Assembly: GCA_000165345.1 (NCBI GenBank)
Contig: CM000433.1
Span: 192,001-256,000 of the forward strand
Direction of reading: 5' to 3'
DNA: 64,000 nucleotides
The notes under the pieces were generated by a model. The model was given only the letters and a program-made list of their open reading frames with translations. It made no database searches and was not told the DNA's origin. The translations under genes were made by a program, and so were the position numbers. Shown here in pieces: positions 3,001 through 60,543 of the stretch. Each line of letters starts with the position of its first letter. The stretch's first letter is position 1.

Positions 3001-3759
3001 GTAAGTTTGACTGAAGCAAGCAGTTGGTTGAAAGTAAAGGTTCCAATTGTCCAGAGCTTAATGGATATTTGAAACATCTCTAATTCAGAATACGATATAT
3101 ATAAGATCTTTTTTGGCCAAACGATAATCGGGAAAGTTAATACTTTTACTTCTCCTGGTTTTAATAAAGTCGCAGCTGTATAAACCATCATTCTCTTTAA
3201 AGTTCCTTCGTAGTTTCTCTCTGGATTAACATGCCCAAATTCAATAACATAGAAGAATTCTTGTGGTGTATTTTCTAGATTTTCACTAGTATGAATAAAA
3301 AAAGAAGCTTCCCATACTCTGAGTTTCTTCATATAATCAACCTCGAATTCAAATCGTTTTTGCAGAAATCTGGATTCATCAACTTTTTGTTGCTCAACAT
3401 CATATTCATCAAAATCGTCCTCCGCAGCAGCATCAAAAGCTTCTGAATCTTCGCGTTCATCATCTGAGTCATGTTTTTTTTCCATTTCAATATCTTGTCC
3501 CATTGGTTTACCTATTTTTTTTTGACTTCTGTAACCCTTCAAATCGAATAAAGGAACTTCAAATCTACTTTGGTCTAAAAGATAAAATATAATTGATCTA
3601 TTTCAACTAATTCAAAGTAAACTTACCAATCACATTTTCTTCAAATTCCACCTCACCTTTGAAGTCTAACCTCCAAATCTCGCCTTCATCAAATCCTGCA
3701 TTTTTAAGCACTTCCTTATTTATTTCTTTTTTGTTTTTCTTATTCTTCTTTTTAACCAT
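1..3759 (-). CDS. Three-exon gene whose 3' end lies beyond the window start: large protein with a C2 domain and a transglutaminase-like (papain-fold) domain, resembling CC2D2A/CEP76. Exons are 3627..3759, 2705..3574 and <1..2653.
   Basis: The ATG is at 3759. Intron 1 (3575..3626) has a GTAAGT donor and TTTTAG acceptor and joins onto the 288-aa ORF in the track. That ORF is followed by an in-frame TAA, then 30 nt, then a long open frame. A 51-nt intron (2654..2704, donor GTAAGT, acceptor CAG) removes the TAA and keeps the frame. The downstream frame stays open to position 1, and no minus-strand ORF is listed there because no stop is reached. C2 signature: DGVTGTSDPIVKVTWDG...RPVYNQNLYFP. Transglutaminase-like core: HVLMFCSCLLGIGFDAYVC...EHMWVMTR. 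Confidence 0.55.
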
Positions 3760-5924: not shown

Positions 5925-7538
5925 TTAATTTGGTTTTTCTAGTTCTGAAACATTATGTGGATGGTTCAATAAGATGTGCCTAAAAAAGGAAAAGAAGCAA
6001 TCAATAGCTAACAGAATGATTACAATCCAAGTCAATCGGTTAGCATGTGTAGTTTGATACTCTTCGGTAATAACTTTCAAGAGTTCTTGCATCATTACTA
6101 TTCGTCTGTTAAGGACTTGAAGCCTCTCGGAAATTTCCAAGTATTCTTGGAGATTCCTCCAAACTGAATGAAATTTATAATTATGCCAAAAAATTTCAGG
6201 TATATCAAGAAAATCCTCAACTAAATTAACTGAAATTTGATAAGAATACAATTCAGAAAATCTTTTCCTTACTTGAGGAACCTCTACCTTAAATTCCTCT
6301 TCAATAACGCTAGAAGCTCCAACCTGGGCAAGTTTTAGTGGCAAATATTTAATGTTTTCAACACAATCCTCAATGAAGTCTTCAAACAAAGAAAGTCTTA
6401 TACTCTGACCAATTGCAAGGGAGGCTGCAAGTTTTTCCTCTGAGCTTCTAGTTTTCAAAGTAACAATATCAGAAATTACTTTCCGGTTATTTCTATAAAA
6501 TCTGCTGTATGCAAAATTGCCATAATTAAAAAGCATAGTGTAGTACTGACAATTTTTGGAGTATTTTCCAACAAACCCCCCAAATGAATATAGAGAGAGG
6601 AATGTAATAATATCTTCAAACCTTTCATCTGAATGCTTTGGAGAGTTCAAATGCGTTAGAGAGTCTGATGTAACTTCTTCATTGCTCCAAGCGACGATTA
6701 CTCCATTTTTAAATATAAAAATAGGGTTTTCAAGCCTTTTCCAATAATTTTCATCGTTCGAATAGCACTCCCCTCGTTCTATTATTTCGTCATTGTAAAT
6801 ATCTTCAAGTTTAGACGGAATTACGGGTTTTGATGGATTTTCATTCTGAAATAAAGAATATTCTTCATAACTGGAGTATTGTTTTGAATATCTGGAATCT
6901 AATAATTTTGCTCTATCTTCGATATTAGAGAATTTTTTTTCAGACCCTTTCCAATTGGTCATTTCATCACAACCAACCATGTGGTTTTTAGGATTATCCT
7001 CAATTGTACGCCTTCTACCAGACCTTCCGAGTATCATTTTAATTGACGGATATATACCAGCAGGAAAAAGAACCTTTCCTAGTCGCCCTTGAGTTGCCCA
7101 GGTAATTTCAATTTTATCGAAATATGGGTTTAAATCAAAGACTAATATACTTTTTTCCTTATCCACGTACCAGTGACAATAGTTATGTTTGTCAAGGGCG
7201 GATCTAATACTCTCTAAATTGTATCCTTCACACAAACAAAACCCTCGAATTACATTAAAGCTTTCTGATAACTCTGGGTATTGAAATTTAGGAGATTTAC
7301 TCTCTATTGGATTTATTGAGCCATTTCTATTTGAAAATTCGGATGCTTCTGAACTAAATTTAGTGCTACGCCATTTAGAAGATCTCCATCCCCTTCTTTC
7401 TGCTCTACTAGTAAAGTTTGTTCTATTTGATGCTATATTTGAATAGTTTGTTCTCTCATTGGGTGAACAATTATTATTAAATTGGCTACCTGCTATAATT
7501 TTGCCTTCTAAGTAATTATTTACTTTAGGTGTATCCAT
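5925..7538 (-). CDS. RMD1/Sif2-family protein (DUF155) with a C-terminal transmembrane helix
   Basis: 537-aa ORF with an ATG start. The DUF155-like core is IFIFKNGVIVAWSNEEVTSDSL...LKLAQVGASSVIEEEF. The C-terminal hydrophobic segment WIVIILLAIDCFFSFF is typical of RMD1/RMD8 proteins. Confidence 0.45.
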   Translation of the reverse strand: MDTPKVNNYLEGKIIAGSQFNNNCSPNERTNYSNIASNRTNFTSRAERRGWRSSKWRSTKFSSEASEFSNRNGSINPIESKSPKFQYPELSESFNVIRGFCLCEGYNLESIRSALDKHNYCHWYVDKEKSILVFDLNPYFDKIEITWATQGRLGKVLFPAGIYPSIKMILGRSGRRRTIEDNPKNHMVGCDEMTNWKGSEKKFSNIEDRAKLLDSRYSKQYSSYEEYSLFQNENPSKPVIPSKLEDIYNDEIIERGECYSNDENYWKRLENPIFIFKNGVIVAWSNEEVTSDSLTHLNSPKHSDERFEDIITFLSLYSFGGFVGKYSKNCQYYTMLFNYGNFAYSRFYRNNRKVISDIVTLKTRSSEEKLAASLAIGQSIRLSLFEDFIEDCVENIKYLPLKLAQVGASSVIEEEFKVEVPQVRKRFSELYSYQISVNLVEDFLDIPEIFWHNYKFHSVWRNLQEYLEISERLQVLNRRIVMMQELLKVITEEYQTTHANRLTWIVIILLAIDCFFSFFRHILLNHPHNVSELEKPN

Positions 7539-7807
7539 ATTATACTAAACTCGAATTCTACTTCGAGAATAATTCAATTTAAACCTGATTCTTTCAATTT
7601 TTTAGAATATTTTGAATAAAAATATTAACCATTATTCAGCATATAAACAAAATATTTTATTATTTAAAAAAGAAAAGTAGTTAAAAAGTATATTGGAAAT
7701 GAACTTTAATCCTATTTTACAAGTGACAAAAAAATTCAAATAATCAAAATAAACCTGGCGCCAAATCGTCAACTTGAAAATTTAAAACTAAATATAGATT
7801 ATTTATG

Positions 7808-43017: not shown

Positions 43018-46000
43018 ATGGATGTAATTTTTTCAAGAATTACACTTGAAGAGCTATCATTTCTCGGTTGGAGTGGAAGCTCTATCGATGAGTTATTTAT
43101 TAAAGTTATTTCGAGAATATTAAATGGACCATATAGAAATTTTGCATCTTTGTTTAGAAATCCTTCTTATAAAGGAAAAATAATAGAAATAATTGCTTCC
43201 CACAAACACACTTTTGTAAAGGATAAATTAAATGGAATTGTGCATTCTTTCAAGAATTGTACAGATTATTATTCTTCAGAAAATCTACTATTTGAAGCAA
43301 ATGATTGTATAAAGAATCATATATTAGACTTGAATATTTTCTCAAATATATCTGAAGTTGAAGGAAGGCTTTCTGTATACATGACAATTGCAAGTAAAGG
43401 ATTTAATGGGTGTTGGCAATATGAAATTTCAAGATTACTTAAGATGGATCCCAAAATGGTGTTTCAACACCTCAAGTATTTATATAAGTACGACAATATT
43501 GTTAGGTTCTCTATTCCAATGCCGACAAATCATAAAAAAAGATTATTTCCCAATGAAGACTCAAACTCATCTTCAGGAGGTCATCTTTCTGCAGTTATTT
43601 GGTTGACTCGGTTCTTTGACATTAATCTTATTCCTAGAGAAATTTCCCAGTTAATTTGGTATCAACACATTCAACCCCTGAGTACTGAGATTGTAAGAAT
43701 TTTAGAATATAAAGCGCCTGGGAAAATAGCATGGGAAAAAGATATTAGAGCTCTTTGCGCAGGATTTATGATCGTTCATGACGAGAATTCAGCAGATCAC
43801 CTCATCTGCTCACAGAGAACTGCCAATAAGGTCTTTAACAAATTGAGAGATTTTTTATTAACGAAAAATGTTAGAAGAGTATTCGCATGGCATCCACTAA
43901 CTAAATCATACTCTCCTTGTCTGTGCTTAAAGGATGCCTTTCCATCTACAACCATTGACTTATCGTCTGAAATTACTGTTAAGGCAGAGACTCATGTTTC
44001 TGAATTAAATATTACCAATAATGAAGACTCTAATTGTCAAAGAAATAACCCGAATAATGAAGATAAAGCTAATGCAAATAGTGGTTTTTTCCATGACTTA
44101 TATCAAGAAGAAATTCAAGTTTCCACTGGAAATAAAATATTTGAAATTACTGAAGCAGCGCAAGTCTTATGGTTAATAAGAGCCAGCGGAAGAGTTGGTT
44201 TAGTCTCTCTAGATATAGTAAAAGTATTCGGTATAAGCATGAAAAGGCTCGGAAAACTGTTATCAGACTTGTGCAAAATAAAGATAATTAATAAGATTCC
44301 GCAAAGGTATAATCGGACATTCATGTATAGATATTATTTTAATAATATTATCTTCTCTCTGAAGGCAGTCACAAATAATAAAACTGACAAATTTACGATA
44401 GATCTGGATAATTATGATAAAAATAAAGTAGACGTAAAATCTGAAATAAAAAATATTGCAATAATGTTTAGTGAAGCTTTTCCAGATAAAAAAATGGAAT
44501 TATCCGGCGTTACTGAACAATTTGTCAAAAGACTAGTCTTAATGAAAAAATGGATAGACGAGTCAAAAATTCTTACGATCCCTGAAATTGCGAAGCTTTT
44601 TTCAGAAGCTGAAAATACTCAAAACGGACCTGACAGAAAAACTATTAAAAGAATATTATCTAAAATTTTGGAATTAGATGAGTACTCGAAGGAATCAAGC
44701 ATTATTCCATGCAAAAATAATAATACATTATCTTCTTCCGGAGAAGTCACGATTTTTTTTTCTTTGAAATTTTACAGTGAAGACGAAGCGAGGGATTTAA
44801 AAGCTACTGAATTAAAAAACAAAAGATCATCTACAACTAAATCTGCAATTGAAAGAAGGAAAAAGGAACTTTCACAGGTTGCTGCAATAATTGATGCATC
44901 CAATTCGTTATCTCCAAACAAACAAAAAGAAGTTTCGGTTATTAATCAATCAAATCATTCTTCTAACGCTATTTTGTCTCAAACTGGTACAAAAGTAATA
45001 TGCGACGATCCGAATCAAGCAAATATACCGAGATTAGTAACAAATAAAATAGGAGATGCTACAGTTATGTTAAATACTCCAGATTTTATGGTTGCATCGT
45101 TAAACATAGAAATTAATGGAGATGATAATTCCGTGAATGATATATTAAGTTCTAAAATAAACAATTCTGATTCAAAACTCCATATTCCTGGGATAGAGTT
45201 TAATAAAAAAATAAGTTTTGATCCTTCAAAAAGAATTAGCCTTGGATTTTCAAATTTATCTAAGGGAGGAATAAAAATTCAGTCAAGCCAAGGAAAAATA
45301 GGATTTTTATCTTTTAGCCAAAAAATTCTTGCGCACTATGGATTTGTATTTCCCATTATGATACGTTTAAAGATTTTACATCATCACTTGCTTTTTTTAT
45401 GCAAAGAAGGTGGATTTAAATGTGATTTGCTGTCTTCTAAAGAAATTTTAGACAATATGACAATAGATACATTTCTTAGAGTAATAGGATTTGGACATAG
45501 ATCAAGATTTATTGAAGAATACCTGCTATATGGCACTAGTGAGACTTTCAAATTTGGTCAAAATACACGTATAAAAGAACTTCCATCCAATCTTTATGAA
45601 ACACTTACAAGGAATTATCCAAAAAAGTTTTTTTTTGGATATGGGAAAAAGAAACACATGAAGAATTATGAGAAAGGTAGGAAAGCAATATCTGTCCTAT
45701 ACAAACTTTTATTTCTACTTTGCAAACTTAATTTCATTAATTTTTCGATAGATGATTCTAAAGAAATTGATAAATCTAATTTTAAAATTTCAAATATTAA
45801 TCAAATGAATATAGAGAGCGTTCCAATATCATCGCCAATATGGAAATTGGAATATAACTTGAAGATTCCTATTCTTATTGATGCTGAGAAGAATGAAATA
45901 GAGAGGCTAACTGAATACATTAAGCATACAAATGTTTCATATAGTTTAAAAAATAGTGAGCAATTTGAACAATTTTGGGCAATTTTAAACAAAGAGTCTA

Positions 46001-48969
46001 TTGATACACATAACTATATTATAGAGTTTAAACCATATAACTATATTACAGTTTTCCCAGACATATTGTTGAAAAGAAATTGGAAAATTAATCCATTATT
46101 ATCAATAAATATAAGAAACCAGCTGGAAAAGTACGCTAGACAATTATTATTTGACAATGCAAATTCATCAAATACATTCGATGAACCAAAAGATAAAACT
46201 CATATTGTGTTATCATTAGCCTCACCAGAAATAAAAAATATTTCCAATGAGCTGGCAATAAGCCCTTTAACAACATTGAAATACTTAATACGTGTTGTTG
46301 ATTCGTTGTCATTAGAAGAATTCAATTTTTCAAATAATCCAGACTCTGCTAAAAGAATTAGTTTCCATCCAATTCGTGATCCCCGTTATCAATGCCATAT
46401 ATGCCATGCTTTATATTCAACACATCCAGCAATGATTTCTCATTATAAGACAATTCACAATATTTACTCGATTACAAACTCTTCAATGTATACTATAAAA
46501 AAAGACAGTTCATTGATTTCCAAAAATAAAAATATTAACTTTAATTCTACAATTAGAACTCAAATACTTAGTGAAAATTATATTCCAAATACACTAAAAC
46601 ATTTGTTGGAGACAAAAGAAACTGATAATACTTGCAATGAGATTGAAAGAACAGATAAGATTGAATTACTCAGAGCATTCTTGAGATTAAGTAAGGAAGA
46701 TATAATTTTGCTATACATTATACTATTTATCAATAATAAAGTAAATATGAAGAATAAAAAATTACTCTCTAACAATTACTTATTTAGAATACTTTCATTT
46801 TGCAAAGAAAAAAAAATTGAAAGTAATTTATTTAGCCTTCAGTTTTTGCGAATTAAGTCATTGATACAAAAAATAAGTGGAATATCAGGAAGCAACTCAA
46901 TTTGTATTATTGAATTTATTTTTTCTTGTTTAAAGACAATTTACCCTTTGAACTCAAAATTGCTGGAAGCAATAAAATTAAAAGAAAAACAAAGGATTTG
47001 TTGGAGTCATTTACTAGAAGTTAATTCATTTTCTAATAGGTGGAAAGTATTTACTACCAAAGAATCAAACTCATCTATAATAGCTTCGAACATCATACCT
47101 CTATTAGATTATTCAGTAAATAATGAATATTATCATAATTTCTCTGGTTCTGGTGGTAAGGATTCAAATATTTCATTTTCAAAAATAGATTATTTACTTG
47201 TTATTAATCTTATTAAATCAGAGTTGCTTACACAAAAAAAAATAATGCAAAAGCCAATTTTTAGGTTTGCTAATCATAATATATTAGCCGAAGAACAAAT
47301 TAAACACTACTTTGAGGACTCTATTAACAAAAATATTTTGAAACAGATTCATCGTAATTCAGATTTACCAAAATTTGAAGAATCCCTCCATAATTATTTA
47401 AATAGATTTGCACCAACTAGGAGAATGTTGCTAAACTGCTTTGGCAAGACAATTGTTTGGCGTGAAATTTTTAATCTTTGCTTTGCTTTCCTACAGATTA
47501 ATTATTCAAAAGGTACAAAATTTAATGTTAACGCTCAAAATACCAATGGAGCATTTGTGTTAAATCATTTAAATAACTTGATAGAGAATAATTGTACTTT
47601 AGAAATAGAATGGAACGATCACGATTTTTATGAAAAGGTATCAAATAAAAACGATGAAGAATTATTCAGATTATTAAATGAGGTGGTTGATCAACAAAAT
47701 TCATTTGAAGATTTCTCTGAGGAATTGAATCTGAATACTGAAAAGTCGATGTTAGATTCTCAATTTTTAAAAAATAAAATGAATCTGAATGTTACAAAAG
47801 AGAATGAAGCAATTTCGAACAAGACAGATAATCTCGGAAATTCAGAATATTTTGAAGATAGCAATAACAAAAACCCAACAATATCCAACATTACAGCAAT
47901 TTATTTAAATAAGCATATTAGCAACAAGTATCTCCCCAATTTCATGGAAGTAGAATACTCATTAATAAATATTCCATTTCTAGGTGCAATGGATTCTGAT
48001 CCCTTGGAATTTAGCAAATTGCCTTCTAATTTTTCAATTTCTGAGATTCTATTGAGTTTTTCTGAAACAAAACTAAAAAATTCAAGTAGAGAGACTATTG
48101 ACCCAATTTTTAAAATTATTAAAGCTGTTTCAAGATTCATAGTTGACTCCAGCTCAAATGAGCATAATCTAATAATGAAATCAATTTCAATTATTATATA
48201 TACATTGAAGAACAGTCCCTGGTTAACAATGAACGAAATTGAAGAGATATTTTTTTTAAAATTTTCTGATTTAATTTCTGAATTATTAATAATAGGATCA
48301 AAATTTATCGATTCGGGAATTCTTTTCTATGAATTTAGGTTACCTATTATTTATCATATTATTTATTTATTGGAAATACTTAGAATATGTATAAGAATAC
48401 CGACAGAAGGAAATTGGTTATTTTCATTATTTTGCTCTATAAATAATAAGTTAGTTGAATTTAACATTGATAATCTTAATAATAATAATAATGATAATAA
48501 TAAATTAACGAAAAATAATGGAAATATCTTAATACCAAATAATGTTCCAACAAGAATATGGCTACTTTGGTCGAATGAAGTCGTTTTACAATTATTTAAC
48601 GAAAAAGAGTTAAATTTGATCGTTAACAATATTAACAAATCTCTATTTGAAGTTTTTGAATTAAATTTTATTGTACCTCCAGAAATTTACTTGAATAGAC
48701 CACAAATCAATTGTTTCGTTTCTGTTGATGGACAAATAAATTTGCCAATTTGCGGATTATTGATTTATTTCATCTCTTCATTAATTCACAGATCGCCAAT
48801 ATTTAATTTGTCAGAATTCACCTCGCGTTTCTCTTTCTTTAGCTCCTGCGAGATTGAATTAATTCTGGAATCTATGTTTGCTGAGAATTGTCTTTACAAA
48901 GATAACACACAAATAATTTTTTCAAAGCCTATACAAGATATTTTTAAAGTTTATGAAGGATATCTATAA
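43018..48969 (+). CDS. TFIIIC B-block-binding subunit-like protein (Tfc3/GTF3C1 homolog), 1983 aa, with one C2H2 zinc finger
   Basis: The size and the C-terminal segment RPQINCFVSVDGQINLPICGLLIYFISSLIHRSPIFNLSEF parallel the GTF3C1 C-terminus (...[33 protein letters not shown]). An N-terminal winged-helix-like region is present. C2H2 finger: YQCHICHALYSTHPAMISHYKTIH. The assignment is from remembered sequence, not a search. Confidence 0.5.
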   Translation: MDVIFSRITLEELSFLGWSGSSIDELFIKVISRILNGPYRNFASLFRNPSYKGKIIEIIASHKHTFVKDKLNGIVHSFKNCTDYYSSENLLFEANDCIKNHILDLNIFSNISEVEGRLSVYMTIASKGFNGCWQYEISRLLKMDPKMVFQHLKYLYKYDNIVRFSIPMPTNHKKRLFPNEDSNSSSGGHLSAVIWLTRFFDINLIPREISQLIWYQHIQPLSTEIVRILEYKAPGKIAWEKDIRALCAGFMIVHDENSADHLICSQRTANKVFNKLRDFLLTKNVRRVFAWHPLTKSYSPCLCLKDAFPSTTIDLSSEITVKAETHVSELNITNNEDSNCQRNNPNNEDKANANSGFFHDLYQEEIQVSTGNKIFEITEAAQVLWLIRASGRVGLVSLDIVKVFGISMKRLGKLLSDLCKIKIINKIPQRYNRTFMYRYYFNNIIFSLKAVTNNKTDKFTIDLDNYDKNKVDVKSEIKNIAIMFSEAFPDKKMELSGVTEQFVKRLVLMKKWIDESKILTIPEIAKLFSEAENTQNGPDRKTIKRILSKILELDEYSKESSIIPCKNNNTLSSSGEVTIFFSLKFYSEDEARDLKATELKNKRSSTTKSAIERRKKELSQVAAIIDASNSLSPNKQKEVSVINQSNHSSNAILSQTGTKVICDDPNQANIPRLVTNKIGDATVMLNTPDFMVASLNIEINGDDNSVNDILSSKINNSDSKLHIPGIEFNKKISFDPSKRISLGFSNLSKGGIKIQSSQGKIGFLSFSQKILAHYGFVFPIMIRLKILHHHLLFLCKEGGFKCDLLSSKEILDNMTIDTFLRVIGFGHRSRFIEEYLLYGTSETFKFGQNTRIKELPSNLYETLTRNYPKKFFFGYGKKKHMKNYEKGRKAISVLYKLLFLLCKLNFINFSIDDSKEIDKSNFKISNINQMNIESVPISSPIWKLEYNLKIPILIDAEKNEIERLTEYIKHTNVSYSLKNSEQFEQFWAILNKESIDTHNYIIEFKPYNYITVFPDILLKRNWKINPLLSINIRNQLEKYARQLLFDNANSSNTFDEPKDKTHIVLSLASPEIKNISNELAISPLTTLKYLIRVVDSLSLEEFNFSNNPDSAKRISFHPIRDPRYQCHICHALYSTHPAMISHYKTIHNIYSITNSSMYTIKKDSSLISKNKNINFNSTIRTQILSENYIPNTLKHLLETKETDNTCNEIERTDKIELLRAFLRLSKEDIILLYIILFINNKVNMKNKKLLSNNYLFRILSFCKEKKIESNLFSLQFLRIKSLIQKISGISGSNSICIIEFIFSCLKTIYPLNSKLLEAIKLKEKQRICWSHLLEVNSFSNRWKVFTTKESNSSIIASNIIPLLDYSVNNEYYHNFSGSGGKDSNISFSKIDYLLVINLIKSELLTQKKIMQKPIFRFANHNILAEEQIKHYFEDSINKNILKQIHRNSDLPKFEESLHNYLNRFAPTRRMLLNCFGKTIVWREIFNLCFAFLQINYSKGTKFNVNAQNTNGAFVLNHLNNLIENNCTLEIEWNDHDFYEKVSNKNDEELFRLLNEVVDQQNSFEDFSEELNLNTEKSMLDSQFLKNKMNLNVTKENEAISNKTDNLGNSEYFEDSNNKNPTISNITAIYLNKHISNKYLPNFMEVEYSLINIPFLGAMDSDPLEFSKLPSNFSISEILLSFSETKLKNSSRETIDPIFKIIKAVSRFIVDSSSNEHNLIMKSISIIIYTLKNSPWLTMNEIEEIFFLKFSDLISELLIIGSKFIDSGILFYEFRLPIIYHIIYLLEILRICIRIPTEGNWLFSLFCSINNKLVEFNIDNLNNNNNDNNKLTKNNGNILIPNNVPTRIWLLWSNEVVLQLFNEKELNLIVNNINKSLFEVFELNFIVPPEIYLNRPQINCFVSVDGQINLPICGLLIYFISSLIHRSPIFNLSEFTSRFSFFSSCEIELILESMFAENCLYKDNTQIIFSKPIQDIFKVYEGYL

Positions 48970-49047: not shown

Positions 49048-51159
49048 TTAATTATCCCCATTTTTTAATATTGTAGTTGTATTAATTGGGTTTGATGTTT
49101 TTATTTGTATTATTTTCTCGTTCTCAGGTAGCAGAGTTGTATTTTGTGCAGCACAATTCAATTGCGGAACAAACTTTAATTCATTTGAAAATAAAGAATT
49201 TTGAGAATTGTTTTTACTCAAATTAGCATTAGCATTATTTGATTGACATACACCTGGAGAAATTCCAAACGGAACTGCCATTTCTGAGTGAATTTGAGAA
49301 TTTAAAGGGAAAAGGGTTAAATTTGAATCGTTTTTTTGCTTATTAATAATTCCAGAGTTATTTAATAAACTTTGTGTTTCGTATGACCCCATATGATTTA
49401 ATGGGATATAATATGGATACATAGATGAGTTAGTATTGAGTATTAAATATGGACTTGATGTTCCAGTTGGGTGCAAAATTGTAGGAAGCTGAACTTGAGA
49501 AAAGTTTCCAAGAGCAATTGATTGATTAATTCCACAAATGTTTTGTATTGAACTCCCTATTAATGAGCTATTTCTCAAAGATTCAAATAAATCTTGTTGT
49601 ATATTTTGACTTTTAGCGCTATTTTTTTCACCAGTAATAATTTGAGACTCCATGTCGACATTAACTATACTGTTTTTATGGGTGCCTCCATTATCTTCAA
49701 AATTGTTAATTGTTGCTTTAACCATTCTTGCATGCGCCATAGTAGGAGTGTCACTGCAATCAATAGATATAGGAGTTGTTCCAGCGCTTGAGCAATTACT
49801 CAAGTTATCTGACATTTGAATAGATGTTGTATTTTGGGAGGATGAAAGCATATTAAAGGCTTTTAACCTTTCTATGGTAAGGCTTGTATCAAGCTTCTTA
49901 GTATTGTCTAGATAGTTTATGAAGTCATGAAGATATGATTGTTGCTGCGCTAAAGAACTAATTACTGGGTTGAAAGTGACCGGAGAATTTTGCTGTATCA
50001 TGAATTGTGAAATCGGTACCTGCGAATTTATTTTTGAAGCGAACTGTAATTGAATTTTGCTCAAATCTAACTGTGATGATAGTGACTCAGATGAGCTACA
50101 TGATTGAAGCTGCTCAAGATGACATCTTTCATCCTTATCAAAAACAGAAGTTTTATTTAATGGTGTTGATTCTTCTGAATTATCGTTTCTATTATTGTAC
50201 TTCAGAATAGGAGCTGACAAAAAAAAGTTATGTGTTCCGTTTGTTCGTGCATATTCTAGAAATCTTTGCATGACAGTGATTAAAGTTTTTTCGGCCATCT
50301 CAGCTGTAACGTCATTTAATTCATGATCTTTTGATACTTGTAGTTTCCAAACAAGCCTAACTGATTGTAAATGATCACAGAAAACTACGTAATCTTGAAG
50401 TGCAAACTGATGGCGATAAGAATAATGCCAGTTCCTATTTAAAAAACTTGTTTGATTGCTATGCTTGGCACAATAAGTCTGTTGAGGGCATAAAGTTGCA
50501 GCAAAATAATTACAATCATCTACAACATCACCATATGCTTCGTAAACACACCTTGGAACCATTAAATTACCACCTTTTGGTGGTAGGTACAATATTTTCC
50601 ATTGCCCAACAATTTTTTCTCTTTTGTCAGCTTTTGGGATACAGTCACAAGAAGGACAAAGAGTCCACCTTTTCTTTCTACCTGTAAAGCCAACGGTAAT
50701 AACTGTTCGATCCATTGTGTCGTTAGATAATCTAGTGCTACGCTTACTAAAGTCGAAAATATAACCATCGACTTCATCTTGATGTGTAACAGCATACCTT
50801 CTTAATCCAATAGTTCCGGGCTCATAATGAGAAATGATAACATTTCTTTCAGTCTCATTAGAAACTTTTTCGAACAATTCTTTTTCAAAACTTATATTCA
50901 TAGAGTCAGCAAAACTACAGAATGAAGGTACATGACGTGGTTTCTGTCTATGAACTGGAGTTTTCGATGCATAAGGTTTACGTATAATCGTAGTTCCATT
51001 ATTTGTATTCATTCTGAGATTATTTTGCATTCCTGGATTTGAAACTGTTTCATGCATAAGCTGATTACGTTTAAAAGATAATTCCTTTATTTCATTAATT
51101 GACTCACTTGTATCCGTCTCTTTAATTTCAATTATTGGCGTTTTTTTAATTTCAAACAT
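49048..51159 (-). CDS. Member A of a divergently arranged paralog pair carrying an unassigned conserved Cys-containing domain of about 250 aa, with a Q/N/S-rich low-complexity tail
   Basis: 703 aa. The conserved block PRHVPSF...YEPGTIGLRRY...VITVGFTGRKKRWTLCPSCDC...VYEAYGDVVDDCNYFAATLCPQQTY is shared with the 52398..54713 gene. Confidence 0.5.
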   Translation of the reverse strand: MFEIKKTPIIEIKETDTSESINEIKELSFKRNQLMHETVSNPGMQNNLRMNTNNGTTIIRKPYASKTPVHRQKPRHVPSFCSFADSMNISFEKELFEKVSNETERNVIISHYEPGTIGLRRYAVTHQDEVDGYIFDFSKRSTRLSNDTMDRTVITVGFTGRKKRWTLCPSCDCIPKADKREKIVGQWKILYLPPKGGNLMVPRCVYEAYGDVVDDCNYFAATLCPQQTYCAKHSNQTSFLNRNWHYSYRHQFALQDYVVFCDHLQSVRLVWKLQVSKDHELNDVTAEMAEKTLITVMQRFLEYARTNGTHNFFLSAPILKYNNRNDNSEESTPLNKTSVFDKDERCHLEQLQSCSSSESLSSQLDLSKIQLQFASKINSQVPISQFMIQQNSPVTFNPVISSLAQQQSYLHDFINYLDNTKKLDTSLTIERLKAFNMLSSSQNTTSIQMSDNLSNCSSAGTTPISIDCSDTPTMAHARMVKATINNFEDNGGTHKNSIVNVDMESQIITGEKNSAKSQNIQQDLFESLRNSSLIGSSIQNICGINQSIALGNFSQVQLPTILHPTGTSSPYLILNTNSSMYPYYIPLNHMGSYETQSLLNNSGIINKQKNDSNLTLFPLNSQIHSEMAVPFGISPGVCQSNNANANLSKNNSQNSLFSNELKFVPQLNCAAQNTTLLPENEKIIQIKTSNPINTTTILKNGDN

Positions 51160-51634
51160 TTTTACAACTTATTAAACGGCTTTATTTTAAATAATTTCAC
51201 TGAGAACTATCTTAATAAATACCTGAAGTTGTTAAAAAGTAGTTGTAATAATAATTTTGTCCCAGTGATTCAGATATTGATGATTCTTTTAAATAACTTA
51301 ATAAATTTTTTTTCATCTAATATAGCATTGAATTTGTAAGATACAAAGTTTTAATAAATGTTATGAGTGTCCACGTTTATCGTATGAAAGTATTCCAAAG
51401 ATATTTATTTAAATATAAATATTGTATATGCGCATATTTTTTTTAATGGAATATATATATTTTGTAATATTGTTTTAATCTATTTTCATAGACCACAATG
51501 TACCTCTAATACAACTATTGGATATAGACACTCAAATCCTATTGATTAATATATTATTATCATAAGTCCTTGCACCCAAAAGTTATTGATATAATAAGTT
51601 TTGTATTTTTGTCATCACAAGATAATAATGTGTG

Positions 51635-51644
51635 ATGCATGCAT
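51635..51644. promoter_or_regulatory. ATGCATGCAT palindrome (TGCATGCA core) in the 1.24-kb interval between the divergent paralogs
   Basis: gtgtgATGCATGCATgattttTGCATttagtg. Further GC boxes CCGCCCCC and TAGGCGCCAAC lie at 51948-51970. Confidence 0.35.
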
Positions 51645-52397
51645 GATTTTTGCATTTAGTGTCTACTTAGTGTGCATTTATTTGAGCGCTAATTTTTATA
51701 GGTATTAATTGTGGATTATAAAATGAGAATATAAAGCAATTATATACAATTTTTAATCTTTCACAAAACTATTACAAAGAAGCAAACACATAAATAGCTT
51801 ATGTAGTTATTAATATATTTACGGGTTTAGTCTAATAAAATTTTCATTAATTGAATTTTTAAAATAAACGACATTCCATAAAATTGCATGTAAATTTTTT
51901 TAGTAATTTACCGGTAATTAGCATATATTCATGCTTGCATGAATATACCGCCCCCACGTTAGGCGCCAACTTGCATCAATAACATACGTGTGCTAGAAAG
52001 ATATTAAAGGCAAGATTCCGCTAAAAATAGAGATATCATTATCTGCCGACATTTGTGTGAACAACTGCACGCATGTCAGGTGGCTGCTTATCCCACAAAA
52101 TAAATAATAATTAAGTATCGTATAGAGTACCATCTATAACTTTAGCTAGTGGCGAAAGTGGAAAATCTAATAATTTAAAATATTTATTAAAATAATAAAG
52201 ATATCGTCTAAAATAAAGTAAAATATAGAATTAAATACAAAAACAATAAATAAAAATTAAAACCCATTTTTTTAAAATTATAATGCAACAAGAAATTAAC
52301 CAATAAAGAAAGAGAATTAAATTACAAAAGCGTTTTTACGAAATTAGGCGATAATTGGATTATAATTTCGACATTTTCGCATTTTGCGTCTATCAAC

Positions 52398-54713
52398 ATG
52401 TCGGATTTTCACTGTAATTCAGTGGACAGTGATATAATTTATGAGTATGAAAATATTTCGGTGAACCAAATGATTGGAGTTAGGAATGGGTTTCGAAGCC
52501 AGGATAATATACATCGAAGCGATGTAGAATTAAGTAAACAAGGTTACAATGGCTTAAAAGATGGGATAGTAAGTAATTCATCAGAAGTCAACGCATATAA
52601 CAGAAGTGTGAATCCCAATAGGCGTGGAGGCAAGTTGAAGCCAAGACATGTTCCTGATTTCGTATTAATATCGCCTGAAGATGTAGATAGATTACTCTCT
52701 ACAGTAACGACTTTAGATGAAAGAAAGACAATAATGAACAATTATGAGCTTGGGACTATTGTATTAAGAAGGCTATGCATAAGCGAAAGTAGCGAAATCA
52801 AAGCTTTTATGGACTCGATTCAAATGAGAACAACAGGAAAAGCATTAGAAAGCCATGAACGGAATATAATTTGCTTGACTTTTAGAGGGCAGCCTAAGAG
52901 GTGGGTGTTTTGTCCATGCAGAAGCTGTTTATTTAAAGGTAAGGCACATGATAAATTAATGGGCCATTTTAAAATTATGGAGCATGATACTCAGACAAAC
53001 AAATTTCAAATCTCTAAGAACGTTTATGATTCATATGGCGTTTTCATGGCTTCTTGTGGCTATTTTGCTGCCACGTTTTGCCCCCAACAAAATTATTCTT
53101 CGCATAAAGTATTTGTCGGCCCTACAATTTCAGATTTGAAAGGCAGGATTCATGATCGATATATATTATTCATCAATGACTCAAAAGTTATACAAATGGC
53201 ATGGAGAAGAAAACAGAATTATTCCTTTGAATGCGAGGAATTACTTAGTAATGTAATGTCCAAGTTGATAGTTTGTGGGAAATCAGGTCATGTACAGATG
53301 ATAAATCAGTTGAGTAAAGGATACTCTGGACTAATATCTCTTCCACTTAAATTACGTTTCCATTGCGAAAACTTAGAAAAACAGCCTAATTCGATTAGTT
53401 CGGTAAATGAATTTAGCAAAGGGGGAGTTGGCTTAGTCAATAAAAAGAACAAGAGAAAAATGAGCAAGAGGAATATGGAAGATTGGGATATTATAAATTC
53501 AGATAAATTTTTGAATGATGCAAATGAACTTCAGAATGCTTATAGCAAAGGTATGGATCAGAGTCTGACATCCAAATCTTATTCTTTTCCAAATTCTCCA
53601 ATAGTAAGGGTTCAAAATAACCAATATTATAATTCAGATAGCAATTCTTTAACTCCAAGATGTACAAAACAGTACATTTCAGAATCAGGGCATGATATTG
53701 ATGGTGAGACTCTAACTTCTAATAGATATGGCTGTATTGTTGGCGATGTATCTACTGCATCAGCAACACCTATTGCAGAAAGCGCAGATTGCATTATTAA
53801 CAAGCAGTTTAATAATTATAATTCAAAGATTTTGGATTGCATTCAAACAATAAATAAAAGCGGGTTATCATTAAACGATATGAGTAGAGGCATTTATGCA
53901 GGTAGCCCGTTGGATCCAAATTCCTTCATTTCAAAAGTTCCAATTCCATCTTCCTTCTTCAACAATATAGGCCAAAATAAGATTTTGATGAATAACATTG
54001 ACGCAAATAAGGCAGATAGATACGGGAATAAATCAAATAGCAAAAACTGGCTTGGATCATTAGAAAATGAAAATGAAAACCCAAATATAAAACAATTAAA
54101 AGAGAACTATTTGTATGGGGATTTTTCACAGGGTAATGGAATTTTTAGATCACATTTTCAACAGAATTTCATAAATGAAGGAGCTCACTTCAATTTTAAT
54201 CCTTTGGCATTTTCTTCTGATTCCGCAACCAACCCAATTCTACAAAATGAGACAATTGAAGAGGAATCCATAAACAAGCAAAATTTTAACGGTGGATTTA
54301 TAATAAATGGTATCGCTGCAAACCAATCAATCTCTTTATATAGGCAAGTTTTTTCTACGAATGAAATCACAACTCCAAATTCTACGCTTGAAATTTCATC
54401 ACCCATACAACAGATTCAACATTCATTTATTTCAGATGGAATGGGTCAAGAACAGAACAGCCAAATTAATATTATTCAACAAACGCAAAATATCGTTAAC
54501 CCTGGAACATATAGTGATGTATTTGGAGAAGATGTAACACAATGCGCTTCATGCGAGCATTGCTCAATTGGTGGGTATCCTTATTATTGCAATTGCTATA
54601 AAATGCCATCTGAATCAGCAGCTAGCTCTAATGTTATCGATGTTAATGATACTGCAGGAGTCTTTCAGTTGAATAATCAATTTATTCATGCTTCACATGA
54701 GGTGGATACATAG
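52398..54713 (+). CDS. Member B of the paralog pair, with the same unassigned Cys-containing domain and an N/Q/S-rich tail
   Basis: 771 aa. Conserved block: PRHVPDF...YELGTIVLRRL...IICLTFRGQPKRWVFCPCRSC...VYDSYGVFMASCGYFAATFCPQQNY. It is head-to-head with paralog A across 1.24 kb. Confidence 0.5.
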   Translation: MSDFHCNSVDSDIIYEYENISVNQMIGVRNGFRSQDNIHRSDVELSKQGYNGLKDGIVSNSSEVNAYNRSVNPNRRGGKLKPRHVPDFVLISPEDVDRLLSTVTTLDERKTIMNNYELGTIVLRRLCISESSEIKAFMDSIQMRTTGKALESHERNIICLTFRGQPKRWVFCPCRSCLFKGKAHDKLMGHFKIMEHDTQTNKFQISKNVYDSYGVFMASCGYFAATFCPQQNYSSHKVFVGPTISDLKGRIHDRYILFINDSKVIQMAWRRKQNYSFECEELLSNVMSKLIVCGKSGHVQMINQLSKGYSGLISLPLKLRFHCENLEKQPNSISSVNEFSKGGVGLVNKKNKRKMSKRNMEDWDIINSDKFLNDANELQNAYSKGMDQSLTSKSYSFPNSPIVRVQNNQYYNSDSNSLTPRCTKQYISESGHDIDGETLTSNRYGCIVGDVSTASATPIAESADCIINKQFNNYNSKILDCIQTINKSGLSLNDMSRGIYAGSPLDPNSFISKVPIPSSFFNNIGQNKILMNNIDANKADRYGNKSNSKNWLGSLENENENPNIKQLKENYLYGDFSQGNGIFRSHFQQNFINEGAHFNFNPLAFSSDSATNPILQNETIEEESINKQNFNGGFIINGIAANQSISLYRQVFSTNEITTPNSTLEISSPIQQIQHSFISDGMGQEQNSQINIIQQTQNIVNPGTYSDVFGEDVTQCASCEHCSIGGYPYYCNCYKMPSESAASSNVIDVNDTAGVFQLNNQFIHASHEVDT

Positions 54714-54792: not shown

Positions 54793-56313
54793 TTAGGTTA
54801 TTTCTTTGTATTCGACATCTTCGAAAACTAATTCGTTAATAGGCTTTGGTCTCCAAACAGAATTCTGGTAAGTGGACGAATTAGGGTCGTTTGCATTTGA
54901 ATAATTTACGTTGCTTGGTAAAGTCCAAATATCTTTTTGCCTAGTTGTAATCTCAATAGATCCTCTTTTTTCACCTATTAAATCAGATGCGCTTCTCGTT
55001 TTTCTTAGTTGACCAGACGTATTCATAAAGTATTTTCCTGCGAGCTTTCCTGCATTTATCATAGTTAGAACGCCCATTGCAAGGGGGAGCTGAGTGTCAA
55101 GCATATTTCCTTTCATTCCGTCTAATTTTGGTACTTCTTCCGTTATCCCATCGTTATCAGTTACACTTTCGTCAACTGCCTTTTTAAATGCTAGAATTTC
55201 TCTGATTGACATCACGATTACGAATGATGTGGTAATAATAATTCCAAAGGAAAATATTATTGTCATTATGAATGTAAATCCTTCAAATTCGTGAAATTTA
55301 GTGAACCCTCCAAAAGTACTAAAAAGTGTCCAAAATACGTAATATGCAGGCACAACCAAAGTTGCATCTCCCATAGCTAGACCCAGATTAAGAAAATGCA
55401 TCTGAAGCCAAGTTGAAGTGGAGAAAAATATAAATGCGAGGTACGGTTGTATGTTATACATCCAATCTTTAGTATGCTGCAAAGCAAATTCACCCCAAGC
55501 AACCATTTCTTTTATTTCAAGGACACATTGGGCACCTATTAGGCCTGCCAAAAAACCATATAACATACTTATATATTTAGGATATTTAGGAAGATTAATT
55601 TTTATTTTTGCGTGATTATTCAAATTTAGTGAATTGTTTGGGGATACTTTCCCAGTTGGAATGATACCAAGCGAATCTTCGTCCAGAGATTTCAATATTG
55701 CCCTTCTTGTTTGAATTTCTTTTTGCTCATTGTATTTTGCCTCTTCATTATTGATTACGATCAAGACAGCCAATGCACAAATAAAACAAAAAATTATATA
55801 AATTAAATAATACGGATCTGACCAAGATTCAATCCCTGAATATTTAGTCGTTGGGGCTTCGGTCGGAATAACTGATGCAATTGCACATAGACAAATTCCA
55901 AAAATGACCCCTACTGTGGAAATCAATTCAAAAATTCCAAACTGTTCATCAAGCAGAGTTGCTGCAGCGAATGCATTAGCAACTAAACCAAAACTATTCA
56001 TTGGCGCTAAAATTGAGGCTGGCGCAAACCCGAGTGCAATAATATGAATAATTGCCCCAAAAGCGTATGAAATAACACCTATCCACCATGTAACTTCATT
56101 ATAAGCCATACTATAAACGTTAGTTTGAGAATCGTTGATACATTTTTGCTGTTGGATGTGTAGACCTTTCTTCATATACGCATTTCCAAATGCCATAAAG
56201 CAAGATCCCACAATAGTAAGCACAATTCCAATCGTCAAACTAAGCACTGGAAAGTTTGTGATTAGCATAAAAAAATAACTCTCCTCCATATTTTCATCTT
56301 TGAAGAGGGACAT
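54793..56313 (-). CDS. NIPA-family (DUF803) magnesium transporter-like membrane protein
   Basis: 506 aa, multi-TM. FGNAYMKKGL and ISYAFGAIIHIIALGFAPASILAPMNSFGLVANAFAAATLLDEQFGIFELISTVGVIFGICLC match the NIPA core (SS.fIG.SfI.KKKGL ... NF.AYAFAPA.LVTPLGALSV...A.L...L.E.L...GK.GC.L). Confidence 0.75.
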   Translation of the reverse strand: MSLFKDENMEESYFFMLITNFPVLSLTIGIVLTIVGSCFMAFGNAYMKKGLHIQQQKCINDSQTNVYSMAYNEVTWWIGVISYAFGAIIHIIALGFAPASILAPMNSFGLVANAFAAATLLDEQFGIFELISTVGVIFGICLCAIASVIPTEAPTTKYSGIESWSDPYYLIYIIFCFICALAVLIVINNEEAKYNEQKEIQTRRAILKSLDEDSLGIIPTGKVSPNNSLNLNNHAKIKINLPKYPKYISMLYGFLAGLIGAQCVLEIKEMVAWGEFALQHTKDWMYNIQPYLAFIFFSTSTWLQMHFLNLGLAMGDATLVVPAYYVFWTLFSTFGGFTKFHEFEGFTFIMTIIFSFGIIITTSFVIVMSIREILAFKKAVDESVTDNDGITEEVPKLDGMKGNMLDTQLPLAMGVLTMINAGKLAGKYFMNTSGQLRKTRSASDLIGEKRGSIEITTRQKDIWTLPSNVNYSNANDPNSSTYQNSVWRPKPINELVFEDVEYKEIT

Positions 56314-58650: not shown

Positions 58651-60543
58651 TTACTTCGGAAATTTCTTATTGGTAATTCTCCTCATAATATTCTTCAAAT
58701 TGTTCCATGCGGCTTGGTTTCTAATAAGTTGTGGGTTCTTAAGACAGCTTGTATGTATTGCAATAATGTATAGTTGTGATATGTTTAGCTCCTTTTGTCT
58801 GCATAAATGCATAACTTTCATCCTTAATGACACACTATAAAATTCTTGCTTTGTTTGGATGAAATTATATGTGAACAAACCTACTGATCTTTGTATATAT
58901 GTTGCGTAACGACCAATAGTAACAACCCATGACATTGCAGATTCTAATGAACTGGCAATGAAATCCGAACAAAACGTATCATATCCATCAAGAATTCGAA
59001 TGCTAAAAAACAGCCACGGGGAATTTATTACTTCATTCTTATCTTCTTCTGCTTCACTTTTTGTCTGGCGTTTAAACAGCTCGTGAAAGAAGCCTTTAGG
59101 CTGATTAATTCTTCGAAATGAGTTAGAGTTATTTCCATAATCAATACCTATCACTTTTTCCAAAGGTATGGTTTTCACAACGTTGCTTGAAGTTGTGTAT
59201 TCAAATGTTGTGCCAACAATTCTGCAATAACACTTTAAAGTATTACCATGACTACCTTGTAATTTATGTAAAATTGAGCCATTTCTAACTTCAAATGTTA
59301 AACTAGGTTCAAGAGCGTTACCTGGCCGACCAACACTATTAAATAGCAATCTTTTAAGATTAATAATCTTTTCTTTAGAATTTGTCAGTTGTGTTTTTAA
59401 GCTATTCACAAGCATATATGAGTCTTGAATTCTTCGATTTTCATTTGCAATTATATCGTTTTTAAAATGAGAAATTATACTCGAAAACTTTTGAATACTG
59501 TTCTCAATTCCAACAATATCCTTTCGAATATTTGAAATTTCCTCAGTGAGGTCTCCTGTATTTTTTGACAAATCCTCAGTAATTTCTGTAATTACTTCAT
59601 TTCTTTTTATTAATAGCGTTTCAAGATATGCTGCCATTTTGTCGACCATTTCTTTCGACCGTGATAAAGGTTCATAAATTTTCAATTCTCTCTTCATTTG
59701 ATCTCTTTCTTTTTTCAGATCCTGATTATTCTTCATAAAGTCAGATAGTTTTTCTTCAACATCAGTTTTTTCTCTGCTTATTTTGTCAATGTTTTTGTCC
59801 TTTTCTTTATTTTCATTTTCAAGTAGTTCAAACCTTTTTTCAAGTTCCTTAAAAAAATTAAATGAGTCGGAAACTAATATATTTTAACTTACTTCAAATT
59901 CCGTCTTTTTTGCCTCGAGTTCATCTTTCACATTAGAGAATTCAACATTTCGCTTACCGAGAATTATTTGAAATTGTTTCTGAGTTTGATAAAGCTCTTC
60001 TTGAGCTTTATTCCCCACAGCAAGTAGACTTTGGGTACCATTATGAAGCTCTTGTAGTTTTTGATATTCATTTATTTTGTTTTTTAGCCCTTCTCTAAAT
60101 GATTCTTTTTGCTCGATGGCCTCTTCAAATCTTAGAACAAGTTGATTATACCTCTTTTTGAGTTCATTGCACGACTCTTCAATATTCTGTTTTTCAATAA
60201 GCACTAACGTGTATTGATCTTCAAGGGAATTACTTTTGTTGTTTTTTTGATTCGTAAAATTAAATTTATTTTCTAGATGTTCATTTGCTTTTTTTTGTTC
60301 GCCCTTTAAACGCCCATTAAATGGAATATTTTTTGGGGAATTATCATGGTACTTATTGTGCCTGGAGTTGGTATTAATCAATTTGTCTGTTGGATTGTTT
60401 GCTCTTCGGTTGATATTTGTAACTAAATTAGTCAAATTTTCATTCCACTCTTTTATTTTTTCCTTTTCATTCCTAAGACGTTGAACATTTACATTCTTAT
60501 TATCTGCGCTGACTCTTTTGTTTATAAACAGATTTGTGTGCAT
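58651..60543 (-). CDS. Coiled-coil protein with a PH-like domain, 2 exons (59893..60543, 58651..59847)
   Basis: The 45-nt intron 59848..59892 (GAA|GTAAGT to TTTTTTTAAG) joins the 219-aa and 361-aa ORFs in phase 0, giving a continuous heptad-rich segment ...KKTEFE|ELEKRFELLENENKEKDK.... The PH-like core is LHKLQGSHGNTLKCYCRIVGTTFEYT...IPLEKVIGIDYG...W. Confidence 0.55.

Follow-up and report, generated by a model that had tools for sequence, protein, structure and literature searches.

SLARP/SAP1 (PF3D7_1147000 and its orthologs) is one of the best-known regulators of the malaria liver stage, and the b9/slarp attenuated-sporozoite vaccine, which has been tested clinically, is based on its deletion. 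Without SLARP a particular set of sporozoite transcripts is absent, and the parasites arrest just after host-cell invasion (Silvie et al. 2008; Aly et al. 2008). Since 2008 SLARP has been described as specific to Plasmodium and as having no recognizable domain, its mechanism is disputed, and it has been termed 'the unclassifiable TF' (transcription factor). It was reported that conserved N- and C-terminal regions of SLARP/SAP1 flank an Asn-rich region (Aly et al. 2008), and the conserved C-terminal end was aligned (Silvie et al. 2008). Here we analyze a window of 64,000 nucleotides from chromosome 5 of Cryptosporidium parvum, in which two adjacent and divergently transcribed genes, cgd5_1000 and cgd5_1010, code for proteins that share a domain homologous to SLARP. 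The explanation that we favor, and that we hold to be reasonably probable, is that the two are ancient SLARP/SAP1 paralogs that serve as paired regulators of gene expression from a shared promoter.

A first-pass annotation of the window had described two long divergent open reading frames (ORFs), and both are present, one of 703 amino acids (aa) at 49048-51159 on the minus strand and one of 771 aa at 52398-54713 on the plus strand, with a gap of 1,238 bp. As an observation that description was confirmed as a whole, and its interpretation was supported in part. By the ORFs and exact database matches, the first gene is cgd5_1000 (EAK88139.1/Q5CRY5; its product is called A here), the paralog on the SLARP side, and the second is cgd5_1010 (EAK88137.1/Q5CRY4; B), a divergent ancient paralog. 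The locus names follow from the neighboring nine-transmembrane NIPA gene, cgd5_1020, because Oberstaller et al. 2013 list two 'hypothetical proteins', cgd5_1010 and cgd5_1000, directly before it in a supplementary table. Newer annotations start A at Met35, which gives 669 aa. Exact-sequence matches to A and B were found in records of C. parvum, C. hominis, C. meleagridis, and C. tyzzeri, all labelled 'hypothetical' or 'uncharacterized', and no mention of either gene was found in the main text of the literature searched.

Homology to SLARP/SAP1

A and B are true paralogs as the first-pass annotation had claimed. BLASTP aligned them with E=7e-31 and 28% identity over 227 aa, collinear through the motifs listed there, and outside this shared block the two proteins are unrelated in sequence. 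The block is an autonomous conserved domain of ~230 aa that has invariant Cys and His residues and is absent from Pfam. It is contiguous in A, where it covers aa 70-305 (50245..50952, minus strand) and is predicted to be a single alpha/beta domain, and in B it covers aa 78-300 (52629..53297, plus strand).

A profile made from the two paralogs was run with HMMER in an exhaustive scan against 1.84 billion representative proteins and gave 28 matches. Four of the matched proteins are 2,760-3,383 aa long, and in each of these the profile aligns to the very C-terminal end with E about 1e-18 to 1e-20. These are Plasmodium SLARPs, two of the four being linked to the other two by near-identical N- and C-termini. 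The homology was also found in the reverse direction. A profile made only from Plasmodium, namely, from six SLARP C-termini, matched A with E=7.4e-22 (94 bits) and B with E=2.8e-7 (47 bits) when scaled to 1.8 billion sequences, and with a profile of the SLARP N-terminus A and B were the top two of the 66 ORFs in the window, at the right positions. The block was described earlier as one that could not be placed in any known family. This stands insofar as it belongs to no Pfam family and is not AP2, E2F, Myb, GATA, CCCH, or C2H2, but it is not an orphan because the profiles link it to the SLARP/SAP1 family. Bacterial giants with VCBS/cadherin repeats that appeared in the scan (E=5e-16 and 2e-5) were rejected as artefacts, since their scores are sums over 16-23 repeats of at most 7 bits each; whole-sequence HMMER E-values for repeat proteins can therefore mislead.

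How the domain is laid out in SLARP was seen with a third profile, made from 22 Cryptosporidium, gregarine, and environmental sequences after every Plasmodium sequence was removed. This profile recovered full-length SLARPs with E=2e-35 to 3e-30. SLARP residues 2-52 correspond to profile positions 13-62 (20-23 bits, conditional E 1e-8 to 1e-7) and the last ~170 residues correspond to positions 82-245 (115-123 bits); the match of the N-terminal module by itself is not significant database-wide. Since the two matched segments flank the gap between profile positions ~63 and ~82, the Asn-rich insert of SLARP, which is 2,500-3,140 residues long, sits there. In A the counterpart of SLARP residues ~2-52 is an N-module at aa 71-122 (RQKPRHVPSF...HYEPGTIGLRRY; 50794..50949, minus strand), and that of the last ~170 aa is a C-module at aa 147-305 (50245..50721, minus strand). 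Those SLARPs checked that have a complete N-terminus all start with MRKGKPRHVPMF...FIFEHYDIGLIVLTKI, for which the counterpart in A is RQKPRHVPSF...IISHYEPGTIGLRRY, and the heptad KPRHVP.F is identical between SLARP and the Cryptosporidium block. Judged by this collinearity, the two conserved ends of SLARP are halves of one ancient globular domain that is split after its first ~52 residues. A 2021 review holds SLARP to be genus-specific and without a recognized domain, which is the opposite of our findings that it is not genus-specific and that it has a split domain.

The likeness between the Cryptosporidium proteins and SLARP goes through both modules in the same order. They have in common the N-module KPRHVPxF...HY(E/D)xGxIxL, the C-module (S/K)KRWTxCPSxxC...TLCPQQTYxxKH, the invariant tetrad of Cys and His residues, and N/Q-rich low-complexity sequence elsewhere in the protein. 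In addition, A shares with SLARP the spacing C-x9-H and the motif SKRWT. The differences are in architecture and number. The domain is contiguous in A and B whereas it is split in SLARP, and neither A nor B has the giant internal Asn-rich region. A and B are four to five times shorter, and their low-complexity sequence is a C-terminal tail and not an internal insert. There are at least three paralog types in Cryptosporidium, whereas one Plasmodium gene was detected. The C. felis ortholog of A (KAF7457230.1), with 91% identity in the domain, is already labelled 'putative SLARP' in GenBank, and the orthologs of C. parvum, C. hominis, C. muris, and other species are still labelled 'hypothetical'. 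The SLARP/SAP1 family is thus already known genetically, and the C. felis label precedes the link made here. In the literature searched, we did not find descriptions of SLARP beyond Plasmodium, of one split domain, of the Cys3His signature or a new fold, of the ancient pair, or of the promoter module discussed below.

Cys/His signature and predicted fold

The first-pass annotation proposed a signature of CPxCxC plus a distal Cys. This did not hold, for the middle Cys is positioned differently in A and B and is not kept in the family. The set that is truly invariant over 20-25 members is C-x4-C, the CPQQ Cys, and a His that comes 8-9 residues after the latter. An alignment of 20 sequences, with spliced SLARP among them, has as its invariant columns one Gly, W, C-x4-C, K, T, C-P-x-Q-x-Y, and His, and the same columns are invariant or nearly so in an alignment of 25 sequences. 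The invariant residues in A are W165, C168, C173, K182, T222, C224, P225, Q227, Y229, and H233. The candidate metal site in A consists of C168, C173, C224, and H233 (C-x4-C...C-x9-H), with a span of 50461..50658 on the minus strand, and that in B consists of C172, C177, C228, and H236 (C-x4-C...C-x8-H), with a span of 52911..53105 on the plus strand. All of these are invariant alignment columns, and the codon positions were checked for both genes.

An AlphaFold2 model of a 251-residue segment of A, made with the 25-sequence alignment, is one alpha/beta domain with a mean predicted local distance difference test score (pLDDT) of 86.6 and a predicted template modelling score (pTM) of 0.85. From a two-sequence alignment the pLDDT was 31 and the model was useless. 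The N-module supplies two strands and two helices, and it lies with the C-module within one domain, which supports the interpretation that the two conserved ends of SLARP belong to one split domain. The loop after the '(S/T)RL' motif (aa ~144-150 of A), close to the place of the SLARP insert and just downstream of it, carries separate insertions, ~44 aa in the GHVS transcriptome protein and ~30 aa in an environmental protein of the third type described below. Since insertions near profile positions ~63-82 occur in several lineages, this part of the domain tolerates them. Each of the four Cys/His residues is placed by the model at a strand end or at a helix terminus, as is expected for a structural metal site, and the tetrad Cys-x4-Cys...Cys-x8/9-His is probably such a site, stabilizing the domain. 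The isoelectric point of the domain is 8.5-9.4 and its net charge is +4 to +13.

On present evidence the predicted fold has no recognizable solved relative. No relevant Pfam match was found at E<=1 for full-length A, full-length B, distant relatives, or the 25 domain sequences of the family, and the models for AP2, E2F/DP, Myb, GATA, C2H2, CCCH, and APSES gave no match in A, B, or the 25 domains at this threshold. Sequence searches of the PDB with single sequences and with the family profile gave no match. Foldseek gave no significant fold match for the model of A, the best being E 0.33 with a TM-score of at most 0.22 against the PDB and E 0.06 against BFVD. Two candidate folds were rejected. 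A zinc beta-sheet of the WRKY-GCM1/FLYWCH type is suggested by W-x2-C-x4-C, but neither a four-stranded sheet with a C-x4-5-C...H-x-H or equivalent site nor structural similarity to solved WRKY or GCM domains was found. A PD-(D/E)XK nuclease appeared among the Foldseek noise (MGME1, Rai1, YqaJ), with E>1 and a TM-score of at most 0.15, and the family alignment has no invariant acidic residue. Classical CCCH fingers (C-x8-C-x5-C-x3-H) and small zinc fingers likewise have three Cys and one His as candidate ligands, but in A and B these are spread over ~65 residues (C-x4-C-x50-C-x8/9-H) inside a 230-aa alpha/beta domain, and no Pfam zinc-finger model matches at E<=1.

The ApiAP2 factors are comparable in another way. 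They too are lineage-restricted, have one small conserved domain within a long Asn-rich low-complexity protein, and act in stage-specific developmental control. A and B differ from them in having no AP2 domain and an unrelated predicted fold, and DNA binding has been demonstrated for AP2.

Age of the duplication and the shared intergenic region

The members of the family in Cryptosporidium are of types A and B and of a third type with RNFYIVDF...SRPWVxCP...ATLCPQQKYADHE. The third type has RNFYIVDF in place of KPRHVPxF, its domain is in the middle of proteins of 765-1,523 aa, and it was found in C. muris/andersoni, C. ryanae, C. canis, and C. felis. It lies outside this window, and C. parvum is expected to have a copy at another place in its genome. 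Gregarine members were found in the archigregarine Selenidium pygospionis, the blastogregarine Siedleckia nematoides, and the eugregarine Trichotokara eunicae, and the other members are from Plasmodium and from unidentified environmental eukaryotes. No coccidian or piroplasm member was found at E<=1e-3 with the two-sequence profile, a result that is not proof of absence. A word-indexed homology search was uninformative on distribution, since with a single sequence it gave no match at all, missing even orthologs present in the collection, and with the family alignment it gave only four sequences, unnamed or from gregarines.

A bootstrapped neighbor-joining tree made on 219 columns split the family, with 100% bootstrap, into one group with Cryptosporidium A, the gregarine A-types, GHVS, and SLARP, and another with B, the third type, and the Siedleckia/Selenidium-2 type. 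Selenidium is represented once on either side of this split. The distance of A is 0.43-0.52 to the Selenidium and Trichotokara proteins as against 1.10 to B. A one-residue indel (C-x9-H) and the SKRWT motif are found only in A, GHVS, and SLARP. Because of the 100% split, the presence of Selenidium on both sides, and the nearness of A to gregarine proteins rather than to B, the sequence comparison places the duplication before the separation of Cryptosporidium and gregarines.

The first-pass annotation had proposed that the pair arose by a tandem-inverted duplication. As a recent, local event limited to C. parvum and its relatives this is refuted. The two genes are indeed adjacent, divergent, and homologous, but C. 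muris, C. andersoni, and C. serpentis, which are gastric species and distant from C. parvum, have both genes in the same layout, and the tree and the distances given above are against it. At the DNA level A and B can be aligned only over the core of the domain, with 57% identity over 382 nt, and the identity at third codon positions is 0.40 compared to 0.30 expected from composition. The DNA similarity is therefore near saturation, which dates the duplication as old and not recent. A non-coding remnant of an inverted repeat was not found, the only 'inverted repeats' being the conserved coding motifs. An ancient tandem duplication in which adjacency was retained is possible.

The shared divergent intergenic region is at 51160..52397 (1,238 bp), and its head-to-head layout and flanking synteny are conserved. 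The order TFIIIC B-block subunit, A, B, and NIPA is identical in C. muris, C. felis, and GCA_037039495.1, and in these A on the minus strand and B on the plus strand are head-to-head with a gap of 1.2-1.65 kb, the divergent orientation being that of a bidirectional promoter. The consecutive locus tags of C. andersoni and C. serpentis agree with this layout. The claim that the interval is a shared promoter was borne out insofar as it behaves as one, with two conserved non-coding blocks and a common expression cluster of the two genes. The first block, CNE-1 (51626..51680), has 84-90% identity to three other species and contains an invariant TGTGTG.TGCATGCA..ATTT run with an AP2_1 site at 51636-51643. 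The second, CNE-2 (51932..52123), has 77-88% identity, namely, 77% in C. muris and 81-88% in two further species. Its match to C. muris at 51935-52085 is 77% over 158 nt (E=4e-21). Over the 17.6 kb compared with C. muris no other segment reaches this identity and no other match is non-coding; the DNA coding for the domains is at 73% and 76%. Both blocks are conserved over four Cryptosporidium species, between which the proteins coded at this locus have only about 51% identity. In the three compared loci the counterparts of CNE-2 and CNE-1 are, respectively, at 7467-7623 and ~6859-6895 of L001, at ~3052-3236 and ~3534-3583 on the minus strand of L002, and at ~3551-3681 and ~3164-3213 of L003.

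The boxes named in the first-pass annotation are all present, TGCATGCA at 51636, CCGCCCCC at 51948, and GGCGCC at 51962. The sites in CNE-2 are CCGCCCCCACG (51948; G-box GTGGGG in reverse complement), AGGCGCCA (51961; E2F consensus), ACATACGTGTG (51982), ATTCCGCTAAAAA (52015), CCGACATTTGTGTGAA (52046), and CTGCACGCATGTCAGGTG (52065). The invariant runs of this block include CCCCCACGT, whose reverse complement holds the G-box GTGGGG, GGCGC[CT]AA, TTACATACGTGTG, ATTCCGCTAAAAA, CCGACATTTGTGTGA, and CTGCACGCATG, and the C. parvum AGGCGCCA fits the E2F consensus [A/T][C/G]GCGC[G/C][A/T]. CNE-2 is not an exon, for its indels are not multiples of 3, and it is not a known or structured RNA, for it has no Rfam match and no compensatory base pairs or covariation. 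Since the indels are non-triplet and there is neither an Rfam match nor compensatory pairing, CNE-1 and CNE-2 look like promoter or enhancer DNA. TGCATG is not enriched over the whole window (26 observed and 27.6 expected), and the local clustering of three TGCATG sites within 310 bp, for which P is about 0.08 if sites are placed at random, is weak alone. Thus, the case for a function of TGCATG rests on invariance across species and not on counts. A scan for sigma-70 promoters and terminators gave results at chance level, and these bacterial models are irrelevant for a eukaryote.

In the table of Oberstaller et al. 2013, in which genes are grouped into 200 expression clusters, cgd5_1000, cgd5_1010, and cgd5_1020 are in the same cluster, number 30, which has 37 genes, with memberships of 0.999, 0.982, and 0.944, respectively. 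According to our proposal one shared divergent promoter would drive both A and B, with candidate AP2 (TGCATGCA), G-box, and E2F sites carried by CNE-1 and CNE-2, and sites for these factors in shared blocks would explain the co-expression of the two genes. It is known that two orthologous AP2 domains, that of PF14_0633/PBANKA_132980 (AP2-Sp) and that of C. parvum cgd2_3490, bind TGCATGCA (PMC4117751), and that the remaining main upstream motifs of C. parvum are the G-box and the E2F motif. In P. berghei, AP2-Sp peaks and motif clusters are present upstream of slarp, which is a direct target of AP2-Sp. The parallel in AP2-Sp and TGCATGCA between the Cryptosporidium pair and Plasmodium slarp is suggestive only. 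It was also observed that A, B, and the NIPA gene cgd5_1020 are three adjacent co-expressed genes, and polycistronic transcripts have been reported in C. parvum.

Possible functions and neighboring features

Each protein consists of one contiguous ~230-residue alpha/beta domain near the N-terminus followed by a long N/Q/S/T-rich tail. We propose that the domain would recognize a target, which may be DNA, RNA, or a partner factor, and that the tails would serve as effector or interaction regions. By homology with SLARP, A and B are most likely stage-specific regulators of gene expression. A role as regulator, which the first-pass annotation had suggested, is judged plausible on this homology. 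Binding of zinc and of nucleic acid, which it had also suggested, a nuclear regulatory role in Cryptosporidium, and the identity of the factors at the promoter are what we infer beyond it.

Several points weigh against the proposal that A and B are paired regulators. The mechanism of SLARP is itself in dispute, being nuclear and at the level of promoters in P. berghei and cytoplasmic and at the level of mRNA stability in P. yoelii (2021 review). The roles given to the two Cryptosporidium proteins are deduced from homology, the domain is only modestly positive in charge, and expression cluster 30 is known here by its membership. The four Cys/His residues are only presumed to converge in space. 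Moreover, Cryptosporidium has no liver stage, and the process that SLARP controls is therefore not directly transferable.

Three mechanisms can be considered for such regulators, and the present data cannot separate them. It is possible, and we put this forward tentatively, that the domain is a sequence-specific DNA-binding domain, so that A, B, and SLARP would be true transcription factors and a second lineage-specific family beside ApiAP2. The domain is basic, its Cys/His tetrad is typical of small DNA-binding modules, the N/Q-rich tails resemble activation regions, and B has a cluster that is like a nuclear localization signal. In P. berghei SLARP is found in the nucleus, and the protein is regarded as an unclassifiable transcription factor and is reported to work via target promoters, but the latter evidence is a personal communication in the 2021 review, whose authors prefer an indirect role, and no fold match to DNA-binding domains was significant. 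That the domain binds RNA or ribonucleoprotein components instead, the proteins stabilizing or storing specific mRNAs, is unlikely. A role of this kind was proposed for P. yoelii SAP1, which is cytoplasmic and the loss of which leads to selective degradation of transcripts. Asn/Gln-rich low-complexity regions are also common in RNA-granule proteins. However, no RRM, KH, CCCH-type, or other RNA-binding signature was found with Pfam, the Cys spacing is unlike C-x8-C-x5-C-x3-H, and the P. berghei SLARP is reported to be nuclear.

It is equally unlikely that the domain serves in protein-protein interaction or as a scaffold, recruiting AP2 factors or chromatin regulators with no direct contact to nucleic acid. 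This was proposed outright for SLARP in the 2021 review, since no nucleic-acid-binding domain was detectable in it, and the fold of the Cryptosporidium domain is unlike that of nucleic-acid binders and the long conserved tails could serve as interaction platforms. On the other hand, no partner is known, and the extreme conservation of the compact Cys/His core from Cryptosporidium to gregarines to Plasmodium fits recognition of a ligand equally well or better. That none of the three mechanisms applies is somewhat doubtful, this being a rough estimate. A more far-reaching version of the proposal, to which we give only a small chance, is that the SLARP domain would be a structurally new, metal-stabilized, and sequence-specific nucleic-acid binder and the founder of a second apicomplexan-lineage family that regulates development beside ApiAP2, that the ancestor shared by Cryptosporidium, gregarines, and Plasmodium would already have had two or more paralogs, and that the regulatory edge by which an AP2-Sp-type factor (TGCATGCA) activates a SLARP-family gene would be conserved between Cryptosporidium and Plasmodium. 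If this version is true, cgd5_1000 and cgd5_1010 would control the switch from the sporozoite/zoite to intracellular growth.

Apart from the mechanism, Cryptosporidium gains with this pair two, and probably three, candidate developmental regulators that are outside the AP2, E2F, and Myb sets. The short, contiguous domains of Cryptosporidium and gregarines, which are free of insertions, are a tractable reagent for work on structure, metal content, and binding of DNA or RNA, unlike the Plasmodium protein with its 3,000 aa and its Asn-rich sequence. The conserved promoter module is sharply bounded and is open to dissection with existing genetics.

The N/Q/S-rich tails described in the first-pass annotation are real, with N+Q+S+T making up 42% of A and 36% of B. 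Both tails are ~51% identical between C. parvum and C. muris nearly from end to end, and since this identity extends over almost their full length, they are constrained and not junk. Two further features of B were noted. A basic cluster, KKNKRKMSKR (aa 349-358; 53442..53471, plus strand), is a candidate nuclear localization signal, and a second Cys cluster, C-x2-C-x2-C-x8-C-x-C, at aa 716-733 (CASCEHCSIGGYPYYCNC; 54543..54596, plus strand) is kept in B of C. muris and of GCA_037039495.1. The extreme C-terminus of B, QLNxQF(I/L)HxSHEVD, is common to the C. muris ortholog. The second Cys cluster or this C-terminus may be the reason why one C. hominis ortholog carries the UniRef label 'C2H2-type domain-containing'.

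Upstream of A is cgd5_990 (43018-48969, plus strand), an ORF of 1,983 aa that is a homolog of the B-block-binding subunit of TFIIIC. PF04182 matches its orthologs in C. muris, C. felis, and a third compared species, cgd5_990 has a C2H2-like YQCHICHALYSTHPAMISHYKTIH motif, and its end is 78 bp from the stop codon of A. On the other side, the NIPA-type Mg transporter gene cgd5_1020 (54793-56313, minus strand) is convergent with B with a gap of 79 bp. Farther downstream on the minus strand, the ORFs at 58651-59736 and 59884-60543, of 361 and 219 aa, the second being ArfGAP-like, are separate in older records. Newer records of C. parvum, C. hominis, and C. meleagridis fuse them into one protein of 615 aa (CPHLJ_5g1051), which implies either an intron of ~147 nt or a merge of gene models.

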